This document shows, piece after piece, positions 1-56,182 of a stretch of 64,000 nt of DNA; within the stretch, counting starts at the first letter, position 1; every line of letters starts with the position of its first letter. The translations under genes and the position numbers were made by a program. The notes beneath the pieces are model-generated. The model was not told where the DNA came from. It saw nothing but the letters and a program-made list of their open reading frames with translations, and made no database searches. The DNA lies in assembly GCA_021513715.1 (NCBI GenBank), contig CP084167.1, positions 2,112,001 through 2,176,000 of the forward strand, written 5' to 3'. Source of the stretch: Candidatus Heimdallarchaeum endolithica (GTDB taxonomy: Archaea; Asgardarchaeota; Heimdallarchaeia; Heimdallarchaeales; Heimdallarchaeaceae).

Positions 1-988
1 AAATTACCTTTCGTCCTGACTTTTTGGCCCATAATAAAGCAAATTCTGTTTTACCAGACCCTGTAGGAGCAACTAAGACTATGTTTTTTTTAGAATGGTC
101 TATTTTTGCAATGATCTCTTTTTGCCATATTTTTTCTTTGTTTGTTATTAATTTAATGGCTTTTGATATTTCCACCTCTAACTGCTGGAAAACGGTTTCT
201 ATACTTGATATCTCTTCCACGTTTATCTGACCACTGGCCCCATAATCACATCGTCTTAAACACCCTAGAAAAACAAAAAAGGAGTAATCGGGCTTTTCAT
301 TGTCAATTTCATATAATTTTAATTCTGTTGTTAAACCATACCCTTTCTTGATTTTTTGCAACAATTTCGTCAATCTTATAAATCCTGGTTCTATCTCGTT
401 TAGTAAAGCATTACTTATGTGTTCACCTAACAATTCTTTTTGTTTTTCTATAAGTGCAATTAACAGCGATTTGATTTGATTGTTGTTTTTAATAATAAAT
501 TCTATGAATTTCTCTATTTCTGGATAATTATCAATTATATAACGTATATTCTTTTCTTGTTTAACATAAAAATCATTGTAGTGATGAAGTAAAATGGCTG
601 TTCGAATTTTTTGATTTCTTTCATCATTATTTAAAAAAATAAGAGAAAAAATCACAGAAAGAATTTCATGATCCTTTACTTTTTGATCAGTTAGTTCTTT
701 AAAGAATTTCTTGACACTTAGCCATTCTTTTTCTTTTTTTTCTGCGTATTTAAAGACCAATCCTTGAAAATAGGGATTGATTTTGCCAAGATCATGAATA
801 AAAGCAGCTTTTACTAAATCTTCGAGGAAAAAATCACTTTTTATTTCTTTGAAATCTATTACATTTTCATTTGCTTTGATAAACTCATGTAATTTTTTTA
901 CTTGATATATAATATCTTGTGTGTGTTCCCATAAAAGATATCTTTTTTGATCTTTTGATTTTGCTCTTAAAACTTCTATTAATTCCAA
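1..988 (-). CDS. cas3: CRISPR-associated helicase/nuclease Cas3 (N-terminal HD domain plus start of the SF2 helicase; runs off the window edge)
   Basis: Hand translation from TTG at 986-988 gives MELIEVLRAKSK...WEHTQD...AAFIHDLGKINPYFQ, and Walker A APTGSGKTE near position 60. Directly downstream of cas5. Absent from the ORF track because it has no stop inside the window. Confidence 0.92.
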   Translation of the reverse strand, partial: MELIEVLRAKSKDQKRYLLWEHTQDIIYQVKKLHEFIKANENVIDFKEIKSDFFLEDLVKAAFIHDLGKINPYFQGLVFKYAEKKEKEWLSVKKFFKELTDQKVKDHEILSVIFSLIFLNNDERNQKIRTAILLHHYNDFYVKQEKNIRYIIDNYPEIEKFIEFIIKNNNQIKSLLIALIEKQKELLGEHISNALLNEIEPGFIRLTKLLQKIKKGYGLTTELKLYEIDNEKPDYSFFVFLGCLRRCDYGASGQINVEEISSIETVFQQLEVEISKAIKLITNKEKIWQKEIIAKIDHSKKNIVLVAPTGSGKTEFALLWAKKSGRKVI

Positions 989-990
989 TT

Positions 991-1854
991 TTATAACCAC
1001 CCAAAGTCATTTACTATTGGAAAAGTTTCTAATTTTTTATCCAAATTAATGTCACAAAATTCTACCTCTATAGGACTTTGTAAAATAAGACTATGATCAG
1101 GACTGATGTATATAACTTCTTTAAACTCTGCACGCCTGTAAGTTTCCTTAGTTATTTGCTTTTTAGATTCAACTGGTTGTCCATTATTTTCAAAAATTAC
1201 CTTAGTTGGTACAAAAAATACAGGAAATTTCAGATTTTTGATAGGAAAATTTGTTCTAGTTATAAAAGTAGGATAATGTAATTTAATATCACCTTCAATT
1301 ATCTCTTTTTCAACAGATTCAACAAAATTAACAGATCTGATGTAAGCAATATCTTCTCCCCGGCCTAGACTTAATACCTTTTTTGTTTTTTCCAGTGATT
1401 CAGCAATTTCCTTTATCAGCATAAGTTGCTCTCTTTTTCCTTTTTTTCCTGCTTTTATAAAAATAAATAGATGACCATTAAATAGTTCTTGTACATAGAT
1501 TGGTGTTCTTTGAGCTGTTTGACCATATCCATAAAGAGGTATAGGTTTGTTCTTACTTGCTTGCTTGTTTACTAGCATATTCCGTTCCTTATCAATATAC
1601 ACTTCACCTCTGATGCTATGCTGATAATTCCAAAAAGAGCTCTCAAAACCGCCAAAAATTGCAATTTTTAACTCCCACCAAGTTTCAATTCCTTGAATAT
1701 GCCCGTACCAATCATTACAAGCATTTTGTAACATACCAATAATCGCTGACTTAGGGGGTAAGGGAAAGCTTTGCGCATAATAAAAAGTAAAGGGATTTCT
1801 ATAGAGCGCAAAGGGTTGAAATATTTCAATGAATAATATTGCTTCTTCTGTCAT
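991..1854 (-). CDS. cas5: Type I Cas5
   Basis: N-terminal FALYRNPFTFYYAQSFPLPPKSAIIGML Cas5 signature and LSLGRGED; lies between cas7 and cas3. Confidence 0.9.
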   Translation of the reverse strand: MTEEAILFIEIFQPFALYRNPFTFYYAQSFPLPPKSAIIGMLQNACNDWYGHIQGIETWWELKIAIFGGFESSFWNYQHSIRGEVYIDKERNMLVNKQASKNKPIPLYGYGQTAQRTPIYVQELFNGHLFIFIKAGKKGKREQLMLIKEIAESLEKTKKVLSLGRGEDIAYIRSVNFVESVEKEIIEGDIKLHYPTFITRTNFPIKNLKFPVFFVPTKVIFENNGQPVESKKQITKETYRRAEFKEVIYISPDHSLILQSPIEVEFCDINLDKKLETFPIVNDFGWL

Positions 1855-1892: not shown

Positions 1893-2924
1893 CTAATTCC
1901 TATTTTTTGCTTCATGTTCTTCAGCAACAAATTCAGGTTCTACTTCTACTGAACTTCTTTTGTATCCATATAATTGAGAAATATTTTGTGGTACAGTTGT
2001 GTCATCTTCTAAAAATTCCTCTACTTTGTTCAATATATCGTCAAATTGTGCGTTAATAATCTGTTTATTACGATCAATATCAACAATAAATTTTGGAGCT
2101 TCTTTCTCAATAATTTGATGTTCAATCTCATTCATAATAGTACCATCCTCTTTTTCGATTTTTCTTTCATTTGTAATTACTTTATATACATTTGATTTAC
2201 TTATTTCAATCTTATCCATATAAGTTTCATACCTTGCATCGTTATAAAGCCCCACAATCATCAGCCAGGGTGAAAGATTTTCCATGCGCCCTTTAATTTC
2301 CCTTTTAAGTGTAAATATTGTTTCTAATAATTGTTTAATTCTTTCATTTTTTTCTTGTTCATCAATCCTGAATTGATCTCCATCTTCGTCTAAGATTCCT
2401 ATTCTATTTACATCTATAACTAAATTATATACATAGAAATCCTTTTTTTCTTCGGAAGTGAAAGGATTACTACCTTCGCCTCCAGCTCGTTTCATAACGT
2501 CTAGATTTGCCAAAAATTGTGTATCAAAGTTGAATGGTGTCATAGAAATAGCATGTGAAATTTTAACAGGAGATACACGAGTAGTTGCACCTTCAGAACT
2601 ACCTTTTTTGGCAATCATAAAACCAAATAAATCAAATTCTGGGAAGCCTAGGATTTCTGAATCCTTAAGTAGTTGATTATTAGGACAAACTACACCTCCT
2701 TTAGTATTAGTTAATTGATCTGGTCCGGCTAATTTCCACTTATTTGGAAAAAGCTTGTTTCCATGGTGTAAGATACTGTACCGAAGAGCATAACGGCTAA
2801 CCAATACATATTGGCGACCATCCCATTTTGTTATTTTTTTTAGTTCTTGATAATTTCCTGAGCCTTGGTCATAATTCAAGGAATTACCATAGAATACTAT
2901 ATCTACTACAATATATTTACTCAT
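1893..2924 (-). CDS. cas7: Type I-B Cas7 (Cst2/DevR family)
   Basis: SLNYDQGSGNYQELKK, VSRYALRY, EFDLFGFM and TRVSPVKISHAIS motifs typical of Cst2/DevR. Confidence 0.92.
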   Translation of the reverse strand: MSKYIVVDIVFYGNSLNYDQGSGNYQELKKITKWDGRQYVLVSRYALRYSILHHGNKLFPNKWKLAGPDQLTNTKGGVVCPNNQLLKDSEILGFPEFDLFGFMIAKKGSSEGATTRVSPVKISHAISMTPFNFDTQFLANLDVMKRAGGEGSNPFTSEEKKDFYVYNLVIDVNRIGILDEDGDQFRIDEQEKNERIKQLLETIFTLKREIKGRMENLSPWLMIVGLYNDARYETYMDKIEISKSNVYKVITNERKIEKEDGTIMNEIEHQIIEKEAPKFIVDIDRNKQIINAQFDDILNKVEEFLEDDTTVPQNISQLYGYKRSSVEVEPEFVAEEHEAKNRN

Positions 2925-3207
2925 CTTTTTCTTTCTCCTTTAAATTTTTACTGTTTGTGTTATATGTATTCATTATTCCGATGATTATTGAATAAGCGTA
3001 ATTGGGAAAAACCTCTTTTGGCATTAAATCATAAGTTGAATTTAGTTGTTCAATCAGTTTACTAAGTTCTTTTTTTGGCTGGTTAATTGCTTTTAAAAGA
3101 ACATAAAAGAATCGTGTTTGGTCATTTGCCTTCACAGTATCCAGAAGAGTGTAAACTAATTTTTGCTTATAGTTGTCTGAAACATCCGTAAAAGATTTTT
3201 CAGTCAT
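2917..3207 (-). CDS. Small helical subunit, Cas11-like (start may lie upstream at an ATT codon, 3268-3270)
   Basis: 96-aa helical protein between cas8 and cas7. KLVYTLLD...FFYVLLKAIN...YAYSIIIGIM resembles the cas8 C-terminal segment LSTDLIHILL...FLNYLLKKLN...YALIIILQL. Confidence 0.65.
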   Translation of the reverse strand: MTEKSFTDVSDNYKQKLVYTLLDTVKANDQTRFFYVLLKAINQPKKELSKLIEQLNSTYDLMPKEVFPNYAYSIIIGIMNTYNTNSKNLKEKEKDE

Positions 3208-3299: not shown

Positions 3300-4937
3300 T
3301 TATTTAATTAATTGTAATATAATAATCAAAGCATATTCTTGCCAAGAGTGCTCATTCAGCACTACTTTGTCAAATAGCCATTTGTTTATTTTTTTCAACA
3401 ATTTTTTTGAATCTTTTTTGTTACATTCGTTTAATTTTTTTAGCAAATAATTTAAAAAGTAGATTTTTTGCTTTTTCAGTAAGATATGGATTAAATCCGT
3501 AGAAAGTTTCAATTTCTCATCTTTTGGGATCAAAGAAAGTATCAAACTAGAATAATAAGAAGAATTTCTGATTTCTTCGTTTATGTCTCTTACCAAGAAA
3601 TTATAATCGCTAAAAAAATCTTTTGAGAATAAACGTTTTTCATTTTTTAATTCACGAATTATTGCTTCGATTATTAAAGAATAAAGAGATGAACTAAATC
3701 GAAAAATTTTATTTGAAGAATCAGTGATGCACAAGAGACAATGTTGTAAAATTAGCGGATAAAGAGGTCTTCCACTAATAAATTCTCTTAAAAGCCATTT
3801 TTGTTTGTATTTTTTCTTGATTTTTTGATACTTTAAATAAATATTGATGTTTGATCTTATTTTATTATCTAACAATATACTTGCATGAAGCTTTGAAATT
3901 CCAATATAGTTTACGGATTGTATGTTTTGCTGATTGTCGACGCCGTCATGTTCTATGACATACATATTTTCTAATGAAAAAATACTTTTTTGTTCAAACA
4001 TGTAATCTAAAATACTGTTCCATGTCACTTTAAGAACGTCCTTATTACGATCCTTTTTTTCCAGTCTATTTAGCGATAGCCGAATACTTTTGTTAATATG
4101 GTAACTACTGTGTAGGTTGTTTGTATAAAATAATATAAATTTAGGTTCAAAAAAACTGGTAAAGGCAATAGGAAAACAAAGTAAATAAATAATCACAGAT
4201 TGTTCAAACAGTTCATTAAAATCATCTAGCGTTTGTATTTTACAATATAGAATATTCAAAGCTTCGCTTTCTGCAAACATAAACTTTGAAATAGTTTTAT
4301 CTAAAGCATTAGGGGTATCACTACCTTTAATTTTAGTTCTATAAAGCATATCTTCAAAGGCGAGAAAGACATCACTTTCTTTCCCTTTTTTGTTCTTTGA
4401 AGGGTTACAGAAAGGTAAATTTAAAAAAAATGGTTCTGTAAAGATTATACCAACATTTTCTATTTTTTTCAATACATTAGGACTTGTTTTAGAGCCAAAA
4501 GAATTTTTAAGATCACATTCAAATTCAGAAAAACTTTCTTTGATTTCGTCTTTAAAGTGATTATTAATATCAATAATAGCTTGTCGAACTTCATTTGGCG
4601 ATTGAAAAGAAGAGGGGACATTTTTATAACTTAACAATTCCTTTTGTAAATTCCTTTTCATCTCTTCAAAATGTTTCTTTTTTGTTTTACTTTTACTAGC
4701 TAAATCTTGCTTATTTATCCATTTTATTGCGGTTTCCTTAATATAATATAAAAAATAAGCATAATAGAATTTCTCTTTATAAAGTGGTTGACTAATTATT
4801 TTGTCAAAGCTTTCACCATAAACATCTTCAATTAAAAAGATATATCCTAAGATCCCTGCGTCTATATACCAATTACCAGTAAAAGATATTTGTTCAGTAG
4901 AATTATTTTTCTTTTCATCATGAATGATAACTGTCAT
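3300..4937 (-). CDS. cas8: Type I-B large subunit Cas8b (Cst1-like)
   Basis: N-terminal FTGNWYIDAGILG motif; 545 aa; lies between cas6 and cas7. Confidence 0.8.
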   Translation of the reverse strand: MTVIIHDEKKNNSTEQISFTGNWYIDAGILGYIFLIEDVYGESFDKIISQPLYKEKFYYAYFLYYIKETAIKWINKQDLASKSKTKKKHFEEMKRNLQKELLSYKNVPSSFQSPNEVRQAIIDINNHFKDEIKESFSEFECDLKNSFGSKTSPNVLKKIENVGIIFTEPFFLNLPFCNPSKNKKGKESDVFLAFEDMLYRTKIKGSDTPNALDKTISKFMFAESEALNILYCKIQTLDDFNELFEQSVIIYLLCFPIAFTSFFEPKFILFYTNNLHSSYHINKSIRLSLNRLEKKDRNKDVLKVTWNSILDYMFEQKSIFSLENMYVIEHDGVDNQQNIQSVNYIGISKLHASILLDNKIRSNINIYLKYQKIKKKYKQKWLLREFISGRPLYPLILQHCLLCITDSSNKIFRFSSSLYSLIIEAIIRELKNEKRLFSKDFFSDYNFLVRDINEEIRNSSYYSSLILSLIPKDEKLKLSTDLIHILLKKQKIYFLNYLLKKLNECNKKDSKKLLKKINKWLFDKVVLNEHSWQEYALIIILQLIK

Positions 4938-5124: not shown

Positions 5125-5862
5125 CTATTTTTTTAAATTAACAAAACCAAAACCCATAGTATTTCGTTCTCCAAAACCCGTATCAAGGCCAAATTTGATT
5201 AATTTATATTGAAAATCATCTACATAGCTCCACTCAAATTCCCACATAGTTGCAGCAAATTTATGTCCTTCACCATGTATGAATAGTTTATTATAAACAG
5301 TTTTTTTATAAGAAAATTGCTCAAAAATATCAATATTTTGGATATAGGTTTTATAAAAATGATTATATTTTTTAATAAGATTTTCTGAGAGTTGTTTAAG
5401 AAAAGCGTGAAAAGGGTAGTGTGGTCTCCAATAAACATATCTCCTTTTTCTTTCTTTTTCGGGAATTTGATACTCGTCATATTTCTGTTCAGGTATTCGT
5501 ATTATTATGGGGGTTGATGAAACAATGTGGATATTTCGTCTTGGTAGAACAATGTCAATAGGCTGAACATCAGTAATTCTAAATTGCATCTCACCAATGT
5601 TGATTACATCTTCGTGTTTCTTTTTCAACATTAGCTGCTCGTATAGAGAATTAATTATTTTCTTCAGAGGTGAAGAAATAATTAAATACTTTTGAGAATC
5701 ACCAAAAATATTAGAAAAACAAAAAAATTTGTAGTCATCCTTTTTATCATGTAAGGAAGAAAAGTCTTTCTTGAGTAGAGAATAAATAAAACCACTAAGT
5801 TTGTTATAAGCATAATCAATATATTGCTTTTTTACATCGTCCATTTTAATAAGTAATCTCAT
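5125..5862 (-). CDS. cas6: CRISPR endoribonuclease Cas6
   Basis: KFFCFSNI, SSTPIII and C-terminal G-rich loop GFGERNTMGFG. Confidence 0.95.
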   Translation of the reverse strand: MRLLIKMDDVKKQYIDYAYNKLSGFIYSLLKKDFSSLHDKKDDYKFFCFSNIFGDSQKYLIISSPLKKIINSLYEQLMLKKKHEDVINIGEMQFRITDVQPIDIVLPRRNIHIVSSTPIIIRIPEQKYDEYQIPEKERKRRYVYWRPHYPFHAFLKQLSENLIKKYNHFYKTYIQNIDIFEQFSYKKTVYNKLFIHGEGHKFAATMWEFEWSYVDDFQYKLIKFGLDTGFGERNTMGFGFVNLKK

Positions 5863-5902
5863 CCAAGATTACCTGAATAGTTATAACTATAAATATTTAT
5901 AT

Positions 5903-6062
5903 CAATTCAACCTATAAATCAAATTTAAACTACTCGTCACAAGTCTCTTCTTACTCATCTTTTCTAACTTCAATCCTATATTAGTCCAATTTAAATGATA
6001 GCAGAGTAATTATGTGGCGGTCTGCAAAACCGATTTCAATCCTATATTAGTCCAATTTTAAC
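5903..6062 (-). CRISPR. CRISPR mini-array: two 30-bp repeats, one degenerate trailer repeat and two 36-bp spacers
   Basis: Repeats at 6033-6062 (minus strand GTTAAAATTGGACTAATATAGGATTGAAAT), 5967-5996 (3 differences) and a degenerate copy at about 5903-5930. Spacers at 5997-6032 and 5931-5966 are both 36 bp. The ATTGAAAN 3' end implies minus-strand transcription. Confidence 0.9.
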
Positions 6063-6160
6063 CTTATTTTATTCTTCAGTCTACATTTTTCACTTATCTT
6101 CTTAATTTGTTTCCTTGGGATCGTACATAGTGTTATTCCTTTATAAACATCATTGATATT
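6063..6160 (-). promoter_or_regulatory. Putative CRISPR leader with TATA box
   Basis: AT-rich stretch with TTTATAAA at about 6140-6147, roughly 80 bp upstream of the intact repeat and on the side opposite the degenerate repeat. Confidence 0.55.
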
Positions 6161-6221
6161 CGTAGATTAAACATTAATATTAGATAATTTAATCTATAAT
6201 ATTCAGATTAAGAAACGTTTT

Positions 6222-6297
6222 TGGAGCAGGGCAAGGGATTTGCACCCCTGTAAAATGGTTTTGCAGACCATCGCATCAACTACTCTGCCAGCCCTGC
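6222..6297 (-). tRNA. tRNA-Cys(GCA), CCA encoded
   Basis: GCAGGGC TG GCAGAGTAGTTGATGC G ATGGT CTGCAAA ACCAT TTTAC AGGGG TGCAAAT CCCTT GCCCTGC T CCA folds as a cloverleaf with U73 discriminator. The D-loop lacks the usual GG. Confidence 0.93.
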
Positions 6298-6519
6298 TTT
6301 CTTCTTTTTCCATGGAGTTTTAATTTACGATAATTCTTTTTTTTTGTACCTAAAAAAGCTTTTCTATTGTTATCTTCTTCTTTTAAAGCTTCAAACTTTA
6401 TTTTTTAGTTTACTATTTTTTCTCAAAATATTGTTCTTAAAAAAAATAAATAATTAAAAAGAGAATAAAGAAAAGAAAAGAAAAAATTTTCTTCAGAAGA
6501 CTTTGGTCTTTATTTTGCT

Positions 6520-6822
6520 TTATCCGAATAAAGCTCCAAGACCTAGATCTTCTTCTTCTTCCTCTTCTTCAGGTTCTTCTTTTTTCTCTTCAGCTTTTTC
6601 TTCTGCACCACCTGCTGAAGCTGGAGCTGAAGGAGCTGCGGCAGCCATTACTGCTGTTTCTAGAGCTTGTTCGATGTCTACTTCTTCAAGAGCTGCTACT
6701 AGAGCTTTTACTCTTGACTCATCTACTGAAGCTCCTGCTGCTTCAAGAACCTTTTTTACTGCTTGTTCATTTATTTCTTTTCCTAATTCATGTAGGATCA
6801 TTGCTGCATATACATATTCCAT
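6520..6822 (-). CDS. rpl12p: Ribosomal stalk protein P1 (L12p)
   Basis: [11 protein letters not shown] start, Ala-rich hinge, acidic tail ending GLGALFG. Confidence 0.96.
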
Positions 6823-18990: not shown

Positions 18991-19260
18991 AAGAGAAGAG
19001 AAGAGAAGAGAAGAGAAGAGAAGAGAAGAGAAGAGAAGAGAAGAGAAGAGAAGAGAAGAGAAGAGAAGAGAAGAGAAGAGAAGAGAAGAGAAGAGAAGAG
19101 AAGAGAAGAGAAGAGAAGAGAAGAGAAGAGAAGAGAAGAGAAGAGAAGAGAAGAGAAGAGAAGAGAAGAGAAGAGAAGAGAAGAGAAGAGAAGAGAAGAG
19201 AAGAGAAGAGAAGAGAAGAGAAGAGAAGAGAAGAGAAGAGAAGAGAAGAGAAGAGAAGAG
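18991..19260. repeat. Perfect pentanucleotide microsatellite (AAGAG)54
   Basis: 270 bp of uninterrupted AAGAG between the 23S 3' end and ftsZ. Confidence 0.98.
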
Positions 19261-35873: not shown

Positions 35874-35934
35874 GTGGCTATGATGTATCTAGCCCTTGAC
35901 TGATTAGTGATGAGGATCTTGAGTGCTGAGCCAC
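35874..35934 (+). ncRNA. Box C/D guide sRNA
   Basis: Terminal stem GTGGCT/AGCCAC; boxes C ATGATGT, D' CTGA, C' GTGATGA, D CTGA; guides of 13 and 12 nt. Confidence 0.85.
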
Positions 35935-56075: not shown

Positions 56076-56182
56076 GCCTCGATAGCTCAGCTGGTAGAGC
56101 GTTACCTTGGTAAGGTAAAGGTCGGGGGTTCAAATAGCTCTTTGTTGTGAGCAAAAGCTTGAAATCCCCCCTCGGGGCTCCA
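56076..56182 (+). tRNA. tRNA-Thr(GGT) with a 31-nt intron at position 59/60 (56135-56165), CCA encoded
   Basis: Acceptor GCCTCGA/TCGGGGC, anticodon arm TTACC-TTGGTAA-GGTAA; perfect BHB in the T arm; spliced T loop TTCAAAC. Confidence 0.92.

Follow-up and report, generated by a model that had tools for sequence, protein, structure and literature searches.

The 64,000-nt window analyzed here, a stretch of the chromosome of Candidatus Heimdallarchaeum endolithica, begins within a cas operon that ends beside a tRNA-Cys gene, and between the two lies a CRISPR mini-array whose first spacer resembles that tRNA. Against which DNA is such a spacer directed, and why would a cas operon keep a guide so similar to the gene next to it? 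An initial annotation made from the sequence alone had aligned the spacer to the adjacent tRNA-Cys at 29/36 with one gap, including 13 contiguous nt at crRNA positions 2-14, and we reproduced this alignment. Its score was 48, compared to a mean of 25.8 and a maximum of 37 over 2000 shuffles, and the 13-mer common to the spacer and the host tRNA-Cys occurs only twice in the 3.33-Mb genome. The features of the locus within the window are as follows.

2-1000, minus strand: 5' part of cas3 (897 aa in full)
991-1854, minus strand: cas5b
1893-2924, minus strand: cas7b (Cst2/DevR type)
2917-3207, minus strand: cas11b small subunit
3300-4937, minus strand: cas8b (E 4.5e-79)
5125-5862, minus strand: cas6b
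5273-5311, plus strand: protospacer with CCA inside cas6, matched 32/36 by the spacer of a cas-less rival array at the same locus (L151, L185, L188)
about 5901-5930, minus strand: heavily decayed terminal repeat of the mini-array, placed in part by direct reading of the sequence
5931-5966, minus strand: second spacer, 36 nt
5967-5996, minus strand: second repeat of the mini-array, 3 mismatches
5997-6032, minus strand: anti-tRNA-Cys spacer, 36 nt, first spacer of the mini-array
6033-6062, minus strand: leader-proximal repeat, perfect, identical to the main-array consensus
6063-6151, minus strand: mini-array leader, homologous to the main-array leader
6222-6297, minus strand: tRNA-Cys(GCA), the foreign "recoded" allele accompanying the island and the sole tRNA-Cys found in the genome
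6253-6292, plus strand: escaped protospacer in the host tRNA-Cys (29/36, one gap, position 1 mismatched, AAA at the PAM position)
6298-6822, minus strand: conserved flank, comprising the 5' spacer of the tRNA and the ribosomal P1 gene, a homology arm common to island-free strains

The type I-B cas island and its mini-array

The island encodes a complete type I-B system, comprising cas6b, cas8b, cas11b, cas7b, cas5b, cas3, cas4, cas1, and cas2 along with a main array of 47 repeats. The cas6b, cas8b, cas7b, cas5b, cas3 (HD plus SF2 helicase), cas4, cas1, and cas2 genes form a single operon, and the array has a leader, 30-nt repeats with a ATTGAAAN handle, and a 5' PAM at its protospacers. The cas4, cas1, and cas2 genes, the main array, and the far island boundary lie upstream of the window, with the main array at genome positions 2105181-2108271, beyond cas3-cas4-cas1-cas2. 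The HD, Walker A, DExH-type, and VI motifs of Cas3 are intact. The island spans approximately 13 kb, all of its ORFs are cas genes, and it replaces approximately 130 bp found between tRNA-Cys and a P-loop ATPase gene in Ca. Heimdallarchaeum aukensis (CP084166).

The initial annotation had likened the position of the operon to that of an integrated island, and had argued from the presence of cas3 that the locus is not a standard CAST. Beyond cas3 we found neither an integrase, Tns proteins, nor a duplicated tRNA fragment. The sole PF00589 match lies at genome position 29.7 kb, no copy of the tRNA-Cys 3' end was detected within 23 kb, and no TnsB, TnsC, or TnsD gene linked to the cas genes was present among the island ORFs. 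TniQ had no match in the host or H. aukensis genome, in a search in which the control genomes were silent too. An integrase-type tRNA-integrating island was rejected for want of an integrase and of a tRNA 3' duplication at the far boundary. A CAST was rejected as well, there being no TniQ or Tns genes linked to cas and a full-length Cas3 with catalytic motifs, that is, an interference nuclease that has not been lost; on this point the initial annotation was right.

The mini-array itself is present as described, in the order repeat-spacer-repeat, and is followed by a second spacer and a decayed repeat. It is read from the minus strand, on which the repeat terminates in the ATTGAAAT handle, and the crRNA is therefore antisense to tRNA-Cys, as had been claimed. 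A TATA-like box at 6140-6147 in the leader lies 85 nt before the repeat, compared to 88 nt in the main leader; with the homology of the two leaders, this nearly equal distance makes transcription of the mini-array plausible. The tRNA, leader, repeat, and spacer were reproduced by the short-read Logan contigs L169 and L173-L175, and since these were obtained independently, the mini-array is not an assembly artefact. The target of the second spacer was not found in the sequences searched, including the 3.33-Mb host genome. With regard to a creT-type toxin, the ORF list contained no ORF of at least 80 aa between tRNA-Cys and cas6.

A second, cas-less mini-array with the same repeat is located in the host genome at 2085610-2085770 (L002:7610-7770), where it replaces about 2 kb of a cassette integrated at tRNA-Leu. 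Its spacer matches the missing part of the cassette in H. aukensis at 33/36 with CCA (L153:8863-10881 / L075:2333-2920), and the junction of its last repeat with native DNA falls immediately behind a CCA of the H. aukensis sequence, on the same strand, resembling a junction of the adaptation type. The 672-aa protein of the tRNA-Leu cassette belongs to no recognized family.

The spacer target and the recoded tRNA-Cys

The initial annotation had proposed that the spacer derives from a different, related tRNA-Cys, and comparison with relatives identified this tRNA as the chromosomal allele of island-free strains at the same locus. The spacer matches the tRNA-Cys of H. aukensis at 33/36, ungapped and with CCA on the 5' flank, and the same target (33/36, CCA) is present in a second island-free background, the metagenomic strain L166. 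The H. aukensis tRNA-Cys resembles the family pattern, and we term it the ancestral allele. At the PAM, the host allele has AAA where the ancestral allele has CCA, and seed position 1 is mismatched in the host.

The mismatches of the spacer to the ancestral allele fall at crRNA positions 18, 24, and 35. Type I Cascade leaves positions such as 18 and 24 of the crRNA unpaired, and two of the three mismatches coincide with these (chance 0.066). The G10-U25 pair, which the initial annotation took for a structure-compatible allele difference, is absent from the allele of the relatives and lies at crRNA position 18; it more likely represents drift of the spacer.

The motif CCW precedes five of the six protospacers found for this repeat family. 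CCA flanks those in the ancestral tRNA-Cys, in the H. aukensis cassette matched by the second mini-array, and in cas6, matched by the rival-strain spacer, and CCT flanks those of two main-array spacers from other strains that match giant genes of mobile elements. The single exception is a main-array spacer that matches a resident provirus region (host genome 3794-3827) with a CAT flank, which we read as escape. CCA occupies 1.05% of genome positions, and CCW is an experimentally tested I-B PAM in C. difficile (PMC4556805).

A search for a perfect protospacer with a PAM, also suggested by the initial annotation, yielded the PAM-flanked 33/36 chromosomal target, but no perfect or viral protospacer. 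The exact spacer was absent from JGI metagenomes, and neither a 21-nt part of the spacer nor the repeat end joined to the spacer start was found in IMG/VR; the best viral match had 6 mismatches and an AAA flank. The main-array spacers gave no useful protospacers among 47 order-level genomes. Neither spacer of the mini-array has a CCN-flanked match of at least 11 seed positions in the 3.33-Mb genome. Elsewhere, two spacers are common to the 37-nt-repeat array of the host (1050858, 1054034) and 29-nt-repeat arrays of H. aukensis (L109:2538-2573; L054:5896-5927) in opposite orientation, the same protospacer having been taken by two different systems.

The host tRNA-Cys differs from the H. aukensis allele at 15 sites (13 substitutions and 2 gaps), and the 600 nt upstream of the gene are 98% identical between the two genomes. 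Every altered stem pair still pairs, and 6 of the 15 changes fall outside the protospacer and PAM. The donor of the recoded tRNA was not found among 83 class-level genomes, where the sister allele was closest at 80%. Divergence of tRNAs between the host and H. aukensis is bimodal, with most orthologues differing at 0-4 sites, and approximately 10 of the 39 tRNAs compared differ strongly with no matching spacer known, so that tRNA replacement in the genus needs no such guide. The heavily replaced or intron-state-changed tRNAs are Lys, His, Cys, Gly-TCC, Ile, Ser-GCT, two Met, Asn, and Phe.

Several of the replaced tRNAs in the host genome have a small ORF without known function inserted alongside. 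Between two tRNA-Gly genes there is a PD-(D/E)XK nuclease gene, other genes, or nothing (L001:6264-7915; L151:2115-2288; L166:11834-14896); both tRNAs have introns when the nuclease gene is present and both are intron-less when nothing lies between them, and this neighbor is possibly a protein-based homing cassette. At 56076-56149 of the window is a weak second tRNA-Thr(GGT), scoring 35 bits with Rfam, whose 3' end has decayed and which may be a pseudogene or a remnant of an att site; a similar weak match occurs in H. aukensis. The window also contains a Pyrococcus-type C/D box small RNA match just above the Rfam threshold (35876-35932) and, adjoining the 23S rRNA gene, a long perfect five-base purine repeat (18991-19260).

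Haplotypes and recombination edges across Heimdallarchaeum

Haplotype contigs of the locus were retrieved through neighboring proteins, and four states were present among them. The empty site, with the ancestral tRNA-Cys and CCA, is found in H. aukensis (CP084166) and L166. The island, recoded tRNA, and intact spacer occur together in the host genome and L203. In a third state (L176, L177, L211, L208), an ancestral-type tRNA is accompanied by the same spacer shortened to 21 nt with its seed lost, followed by cas6 where the contig extends far enough; the PAM is CAA in L176, L177, and L211 and an intact CCA in L208. The fourth state is a cas-less array that lacks the anti-tRNA spacer and carries an anti-cas6 spacer, found in L185 and L188 (tRNA PAM CCA in both) and in L151 (tRNA PAM ACA).

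An intact spacer beside an ancestral-type tRNA-Cys was never seen among the Heimdallarchaeum contigs compared, an exclusion for which we claim no statistic, the haplotypes being close kin that represent perhaps 3-4 independent events. The linkage of array, spacer, and tRNA-Cys that the initial annotation thought might extend to relatives is accordingly seen for the intact spacer only beside the recoded tRNA, the spacer being seedless or absent beside ancestral-type alleles. L203 has none of 42 distinct main-array spacers in common with the host, yet its anti-tRNA spacer is retained at 35/36. This spacer is no better conserved than the neighboring DNA. Only three sites vary in the ancestral-type tRNA, and two of the three remove a C of the PAM; these sites sit in the variable loop of the tRNA, where constraint is loose in any case. 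The seedless spacer has the same drifted positions 18, 24, and 35 as the intact spacer, indicating that the drift preceded truncation, unless these bases were already present in the source allele.

The single change in the spacer of L203 (L203:492-527, position 17) equals a change in the ACA allele of L151/L214, which may reflect tracking of target by spacer or chance. In the cas-less array, the two repeats nearest the leader adjoin directly, without an intervening spacer (L151:748-807, also in L185, L188, and L210), and this junction is the place the anti-tRNA spacer would occupy.

Both edges of the island bear traces of recombination. On the side of the downstream gene, a diverged 5' end of approximately 110 nt in the host, and approximately 270 nt in L203 and the cas-less types, is followed by a sharp return to the empty-site sequence, and on the tRNA side the whole tRNA is diverged, starting at tRNA base 3. 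The island and recoded tRNA are found with two short 5' flank haplotypes, each of which is also found with the ancestral allele, and a crossover within approximately 20 nt of the PAM-distal end of the protospacer is therefore needed. The two intact islands, of the host and L203, are mosaics that are 88-99.7% identical by gene. In a JGI sample series, empty and island haplotypes co-occur on one background (L166, L170, L203), which is suggestive only, as assemblers merge strains.

Candidate homing of the island, its alternatives, and related systems

The target with its PAM, the resistant own copy, the intact machinery, the exclusion pattern, and the co-converted edges lead us to favor the view that the locus probably acts as a free-standing homing endonuclease would, but with an RNA guide, and spreads or protects its island by cutting the rival allele. 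The array would be expressed, the rival allele cut, and repair biased so that the island is copied or protected. Island-bearing and island-free copies of the region would meet in one cell after DNA transfer, and Cascade-Cas3 would destroy the island-free copy at the essential tRNA-Cys gene. Homologous recombination with the island-bearing copy as template would then repair the damage and install the island together with the recoded tRNA, and incoming empty-site DNA would be unable to displace an established island; spread and protection against displacement would be two faces of one activity. Plain deletion would be no viable escape, since the target is the only tRNA-Cys. A crossover placing an ancestral tRNA by the island would lead to self-targeting, from which a haplotype would escape by losing the seed of the spacer, mutating the PAM, or shedding its cas genes, and those cas-less arrays that carry an anti-cas6 spacer would oppose a renewed entry of the island. 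More tentatively, with somewhat less than even confidence, we propose that the locus could be a natural chromosomal CRISPR-Cas3 gene drive between Asgard strains or species, which would cut the recipient's only tRNA-Cys, supply a recoded copy, and have provoked alleles that resist it, by PAM mutations in the variable loop of the tRNA, and others that act as anti-drives, namely the anti-cas6 orphan arrays.

Among the roles considered by the initial annotation, homing of the cas island is thus the best supported, by way of homologous recombination and not of integration. Its proposal that the spacer guards the site stands with respect to a rival chromosomal allele, but not to attP or integrating elements, as no attP, att duplication, integrase, or viral protospacer was found. 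A precedent in favor of homing comes from Haloferax, where Cas3-dependent biased recombination between archaeal strains has been demonstrated, with gene flow from the cut genome into the cutting genome that reaches distant loci (PMC12814878). The direction of this flow and the distance of the loci imply that targeting need not copy the cas locus itself, which counts against homing, as does the lack of a tRNA-targeting spacer in the 38 homologous I-B loci from GTDB outside the genus.

The same haplotypes might instead be the scars of an autoimmune accident, in which array-adjacent DNA was captured as spacers, one of them against tRNA-Cys, and survivors exchanged the tRNA, truncated the spacer, acquired a PAM mutation, or shed cas genes, leaving the spacer as an inert passenger. 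That all three mini-array matches are to array-adjacent DNA (the tRNA, cas6, and the cassette at tRNA-Leu) agrees with such an origin, as do the frequency of tRNA swaps in the genus, the conservation of the spacer at the level of its flanking DNA, and a mini-array that has not grown, whose old spacers would simply not have been displaced. We nonetheless judge this, the main alternative, to be clearly less likely than homing: several different escapes have in common one already drifted spacer and a decayed second repeat, which would need long residence by a resistant allele and then new conflicts, and transfer of the cassette between backgrounds involved a crossover no more than approximately 20 nt from the protospacer end. 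Even with this origin, an expressed guide with a target and PAM in relatives would act on them. Ordinary defense against a virus or plasmid bearing an ancestral-like tRNA-Cys or an attP piece of it, with the host allele replaced so that the guide could stay, appears less probable again. A third allele could account for the three spacer positions at which all chromosomal alleles observed differ from the spacer, the viral contig L149 has a related tRNA-Cys, and other spacers of the repeat family match giant genes of mobile elements. Yet IMG/VR and the JGI metagenomes held no exact or near match, the best viral one having 6 mismatches and AAA; the spacer corresponds to the 5' half of the tRNA, while att duplications in the host genome use the 3' end (39 bp at tRNA-Leu); and two of three mismatches fall on the Cascade-unpaired positions 18 and 24 (chance 0.066).

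Least probable, in our estimation, is a regulatory guide, CreA/CreR-like or antisense, acting on the host tRNA-Cys gene or RNA without cutting, a role the initial annotation had also offered. The position upstream of cas6 and the decayed distal repeats do fit regulatory mini-arrays (bioRxiv 10.1101/2023.03.03.530964), 13 contiguous bases of the antisense crRNA pair with the anticodon arm, and the genome contains a Cas10-like gene at another locus, next to a repeat of a different kind. Against this, the host allele lacks the PAM (AAA) and is mismatched at seed position 1, no CCN-flanked seed match to either spacer was found in the genome, and the match to the foreign allele is far better than that to the host allele. 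The seed was moreover lost in strains with a near-perfect target, which points to lethality and not to regulation.

As a candidate homing system, the locus can be set beside several known ones. T-even phages have free-standing homing endonucleases, among them SegB, which cuts within tRNA genes, and these enzymes bring about intronless homing with co-conversion (PMC13565253). As in these, a nuclease module lies by a conserved gene whose sequence differences distinguish self from non-self, flanking markers are co-carried, and there is no integrase. From its sequence the target appears to lie in the neighboring conserved gene of element-free relatives, with a resistant own copy, and flanking markers are co-converted without a recombinase. 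The differences are that a crRNA and multi-subunit Cascade-Cas3 stand in for a single site-reading protein (GIY-YIG, HNH, LAGLIDADG, or PD-(D/E)XK), that the element is a 13-kb chromosomal immune locus of an archaeon, and that the target is a single-copy essential tRNA. Because its site is set by a crRNA, the locus would work like a homing endonuclease but is not a member of that class. RNA-guided homing and plasmid gene drive by TnpB/IscB (OMEGA) are described in PMC13565253, which cites Meers 2023 and Mears 2025. The locus would work like TnpB homing without being a member: both direct an RNA guide against the element-free form of their own site, which in the present locus would likewise promote retention or spread by recombination, but here there is no transposase or IS end, the guide is a true CRISPR spacer, and protection comes from a recoded essential gene and not from interruption of the target. 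CASTs of types I-F3 and V-K home by a delocalized crRNA (PMC11656645) and likewise target a tRNA gene at the site where the element resides, through a separate mini-array whose repeat has diverged; they differ in that the present locus has Cas3, Cas1, Cas2, and Cas4, lacks TniQ/Tns, and no longer matches its resident copy, whereas CASTs leave their target intact.

The location, size, and decayed distal repeat of the mini-array next to cas6 are shared with the type I-B CreA/CreR and crlRNA mini-arrays upstream of cas6 (bioRxiv 10.1101/2023.03.03.530964). In contrast to these, it retains a leader, and its spacer matches a foreign allele over almost the full length, not a cas promoter over a short PAM-flanked stretch; no partial CCN-flanked seed match of at least 11 positions to its own promoter was found. 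Virus-borne mini-arrays act in inter-element competition (PMC11656645), and the locus resembles these and Haloferax Cas3 recombination in that a mini-array is directed against a close relative and I-B cutting would stimulate inter-strain recombination (PMC11656645, PMC12814878), but differs in its chromosomal alleles, natural spacer, own cas genes, and linked resistant target.

On sequence grounds the rival haplotype would itself qualify as an orphan anti-cas array, that is, a cas-less array at the cas locus with a PAM-flanked anti-cas spacer. Orphan CRISPR4 arrays of E. coli with anti-cas spacers were reportedly described by Almendros in 2016. In both, an array without cas genes occupies the same locus and carries a PAM-flanked spacer directed at the cas operon that was lost; unlike E. 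coli, the system here is type I-B and archaeal, and the opposing island itself targets an essential gene of the recipient.

Beyond the genus, a search for Cas7 relatives in 400 Asgard genomes gave one other match, with no tRNA link. A homologous I-B locus of Aenigmarchaeota (L117:9080-9689) also ends at the 3' end of tRNA-Cys, and its spacers are unrelated, none matching a tRNA. The genome paper noted CRISPR loci adjoining tRNA genes (PMC8813620); its main text does not mention Cys, self-targeting, or this spacer, and the spacer was not found in the portion of the supplement available. Within literature of incomplete coverage, we found no report of a natural cas operon whose guide targets the allele that cas-free strains have of a linked essential gene.

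How CRISPR-Cas systems move between genomes without a transposase or integrase is an open question, for which this locus offers a concrete and testable route. Pairing a resistant copy of a linked essential gene with a guide that targets its cas-free allele is the design principle of engineered homing drives, and in Heimdallarchaeum a natural series would run from armed and disarmed to resistant and counter-attacking haplotypes. The finding suggests that "regulatory" mini-arrays upstream of cas6 with unexplained spacers are worth searching against the same locus in relatives. Conflicts of this kind may also be one cause of the rapid turnover of tRNAs in the archaea closest to eukaryotes.
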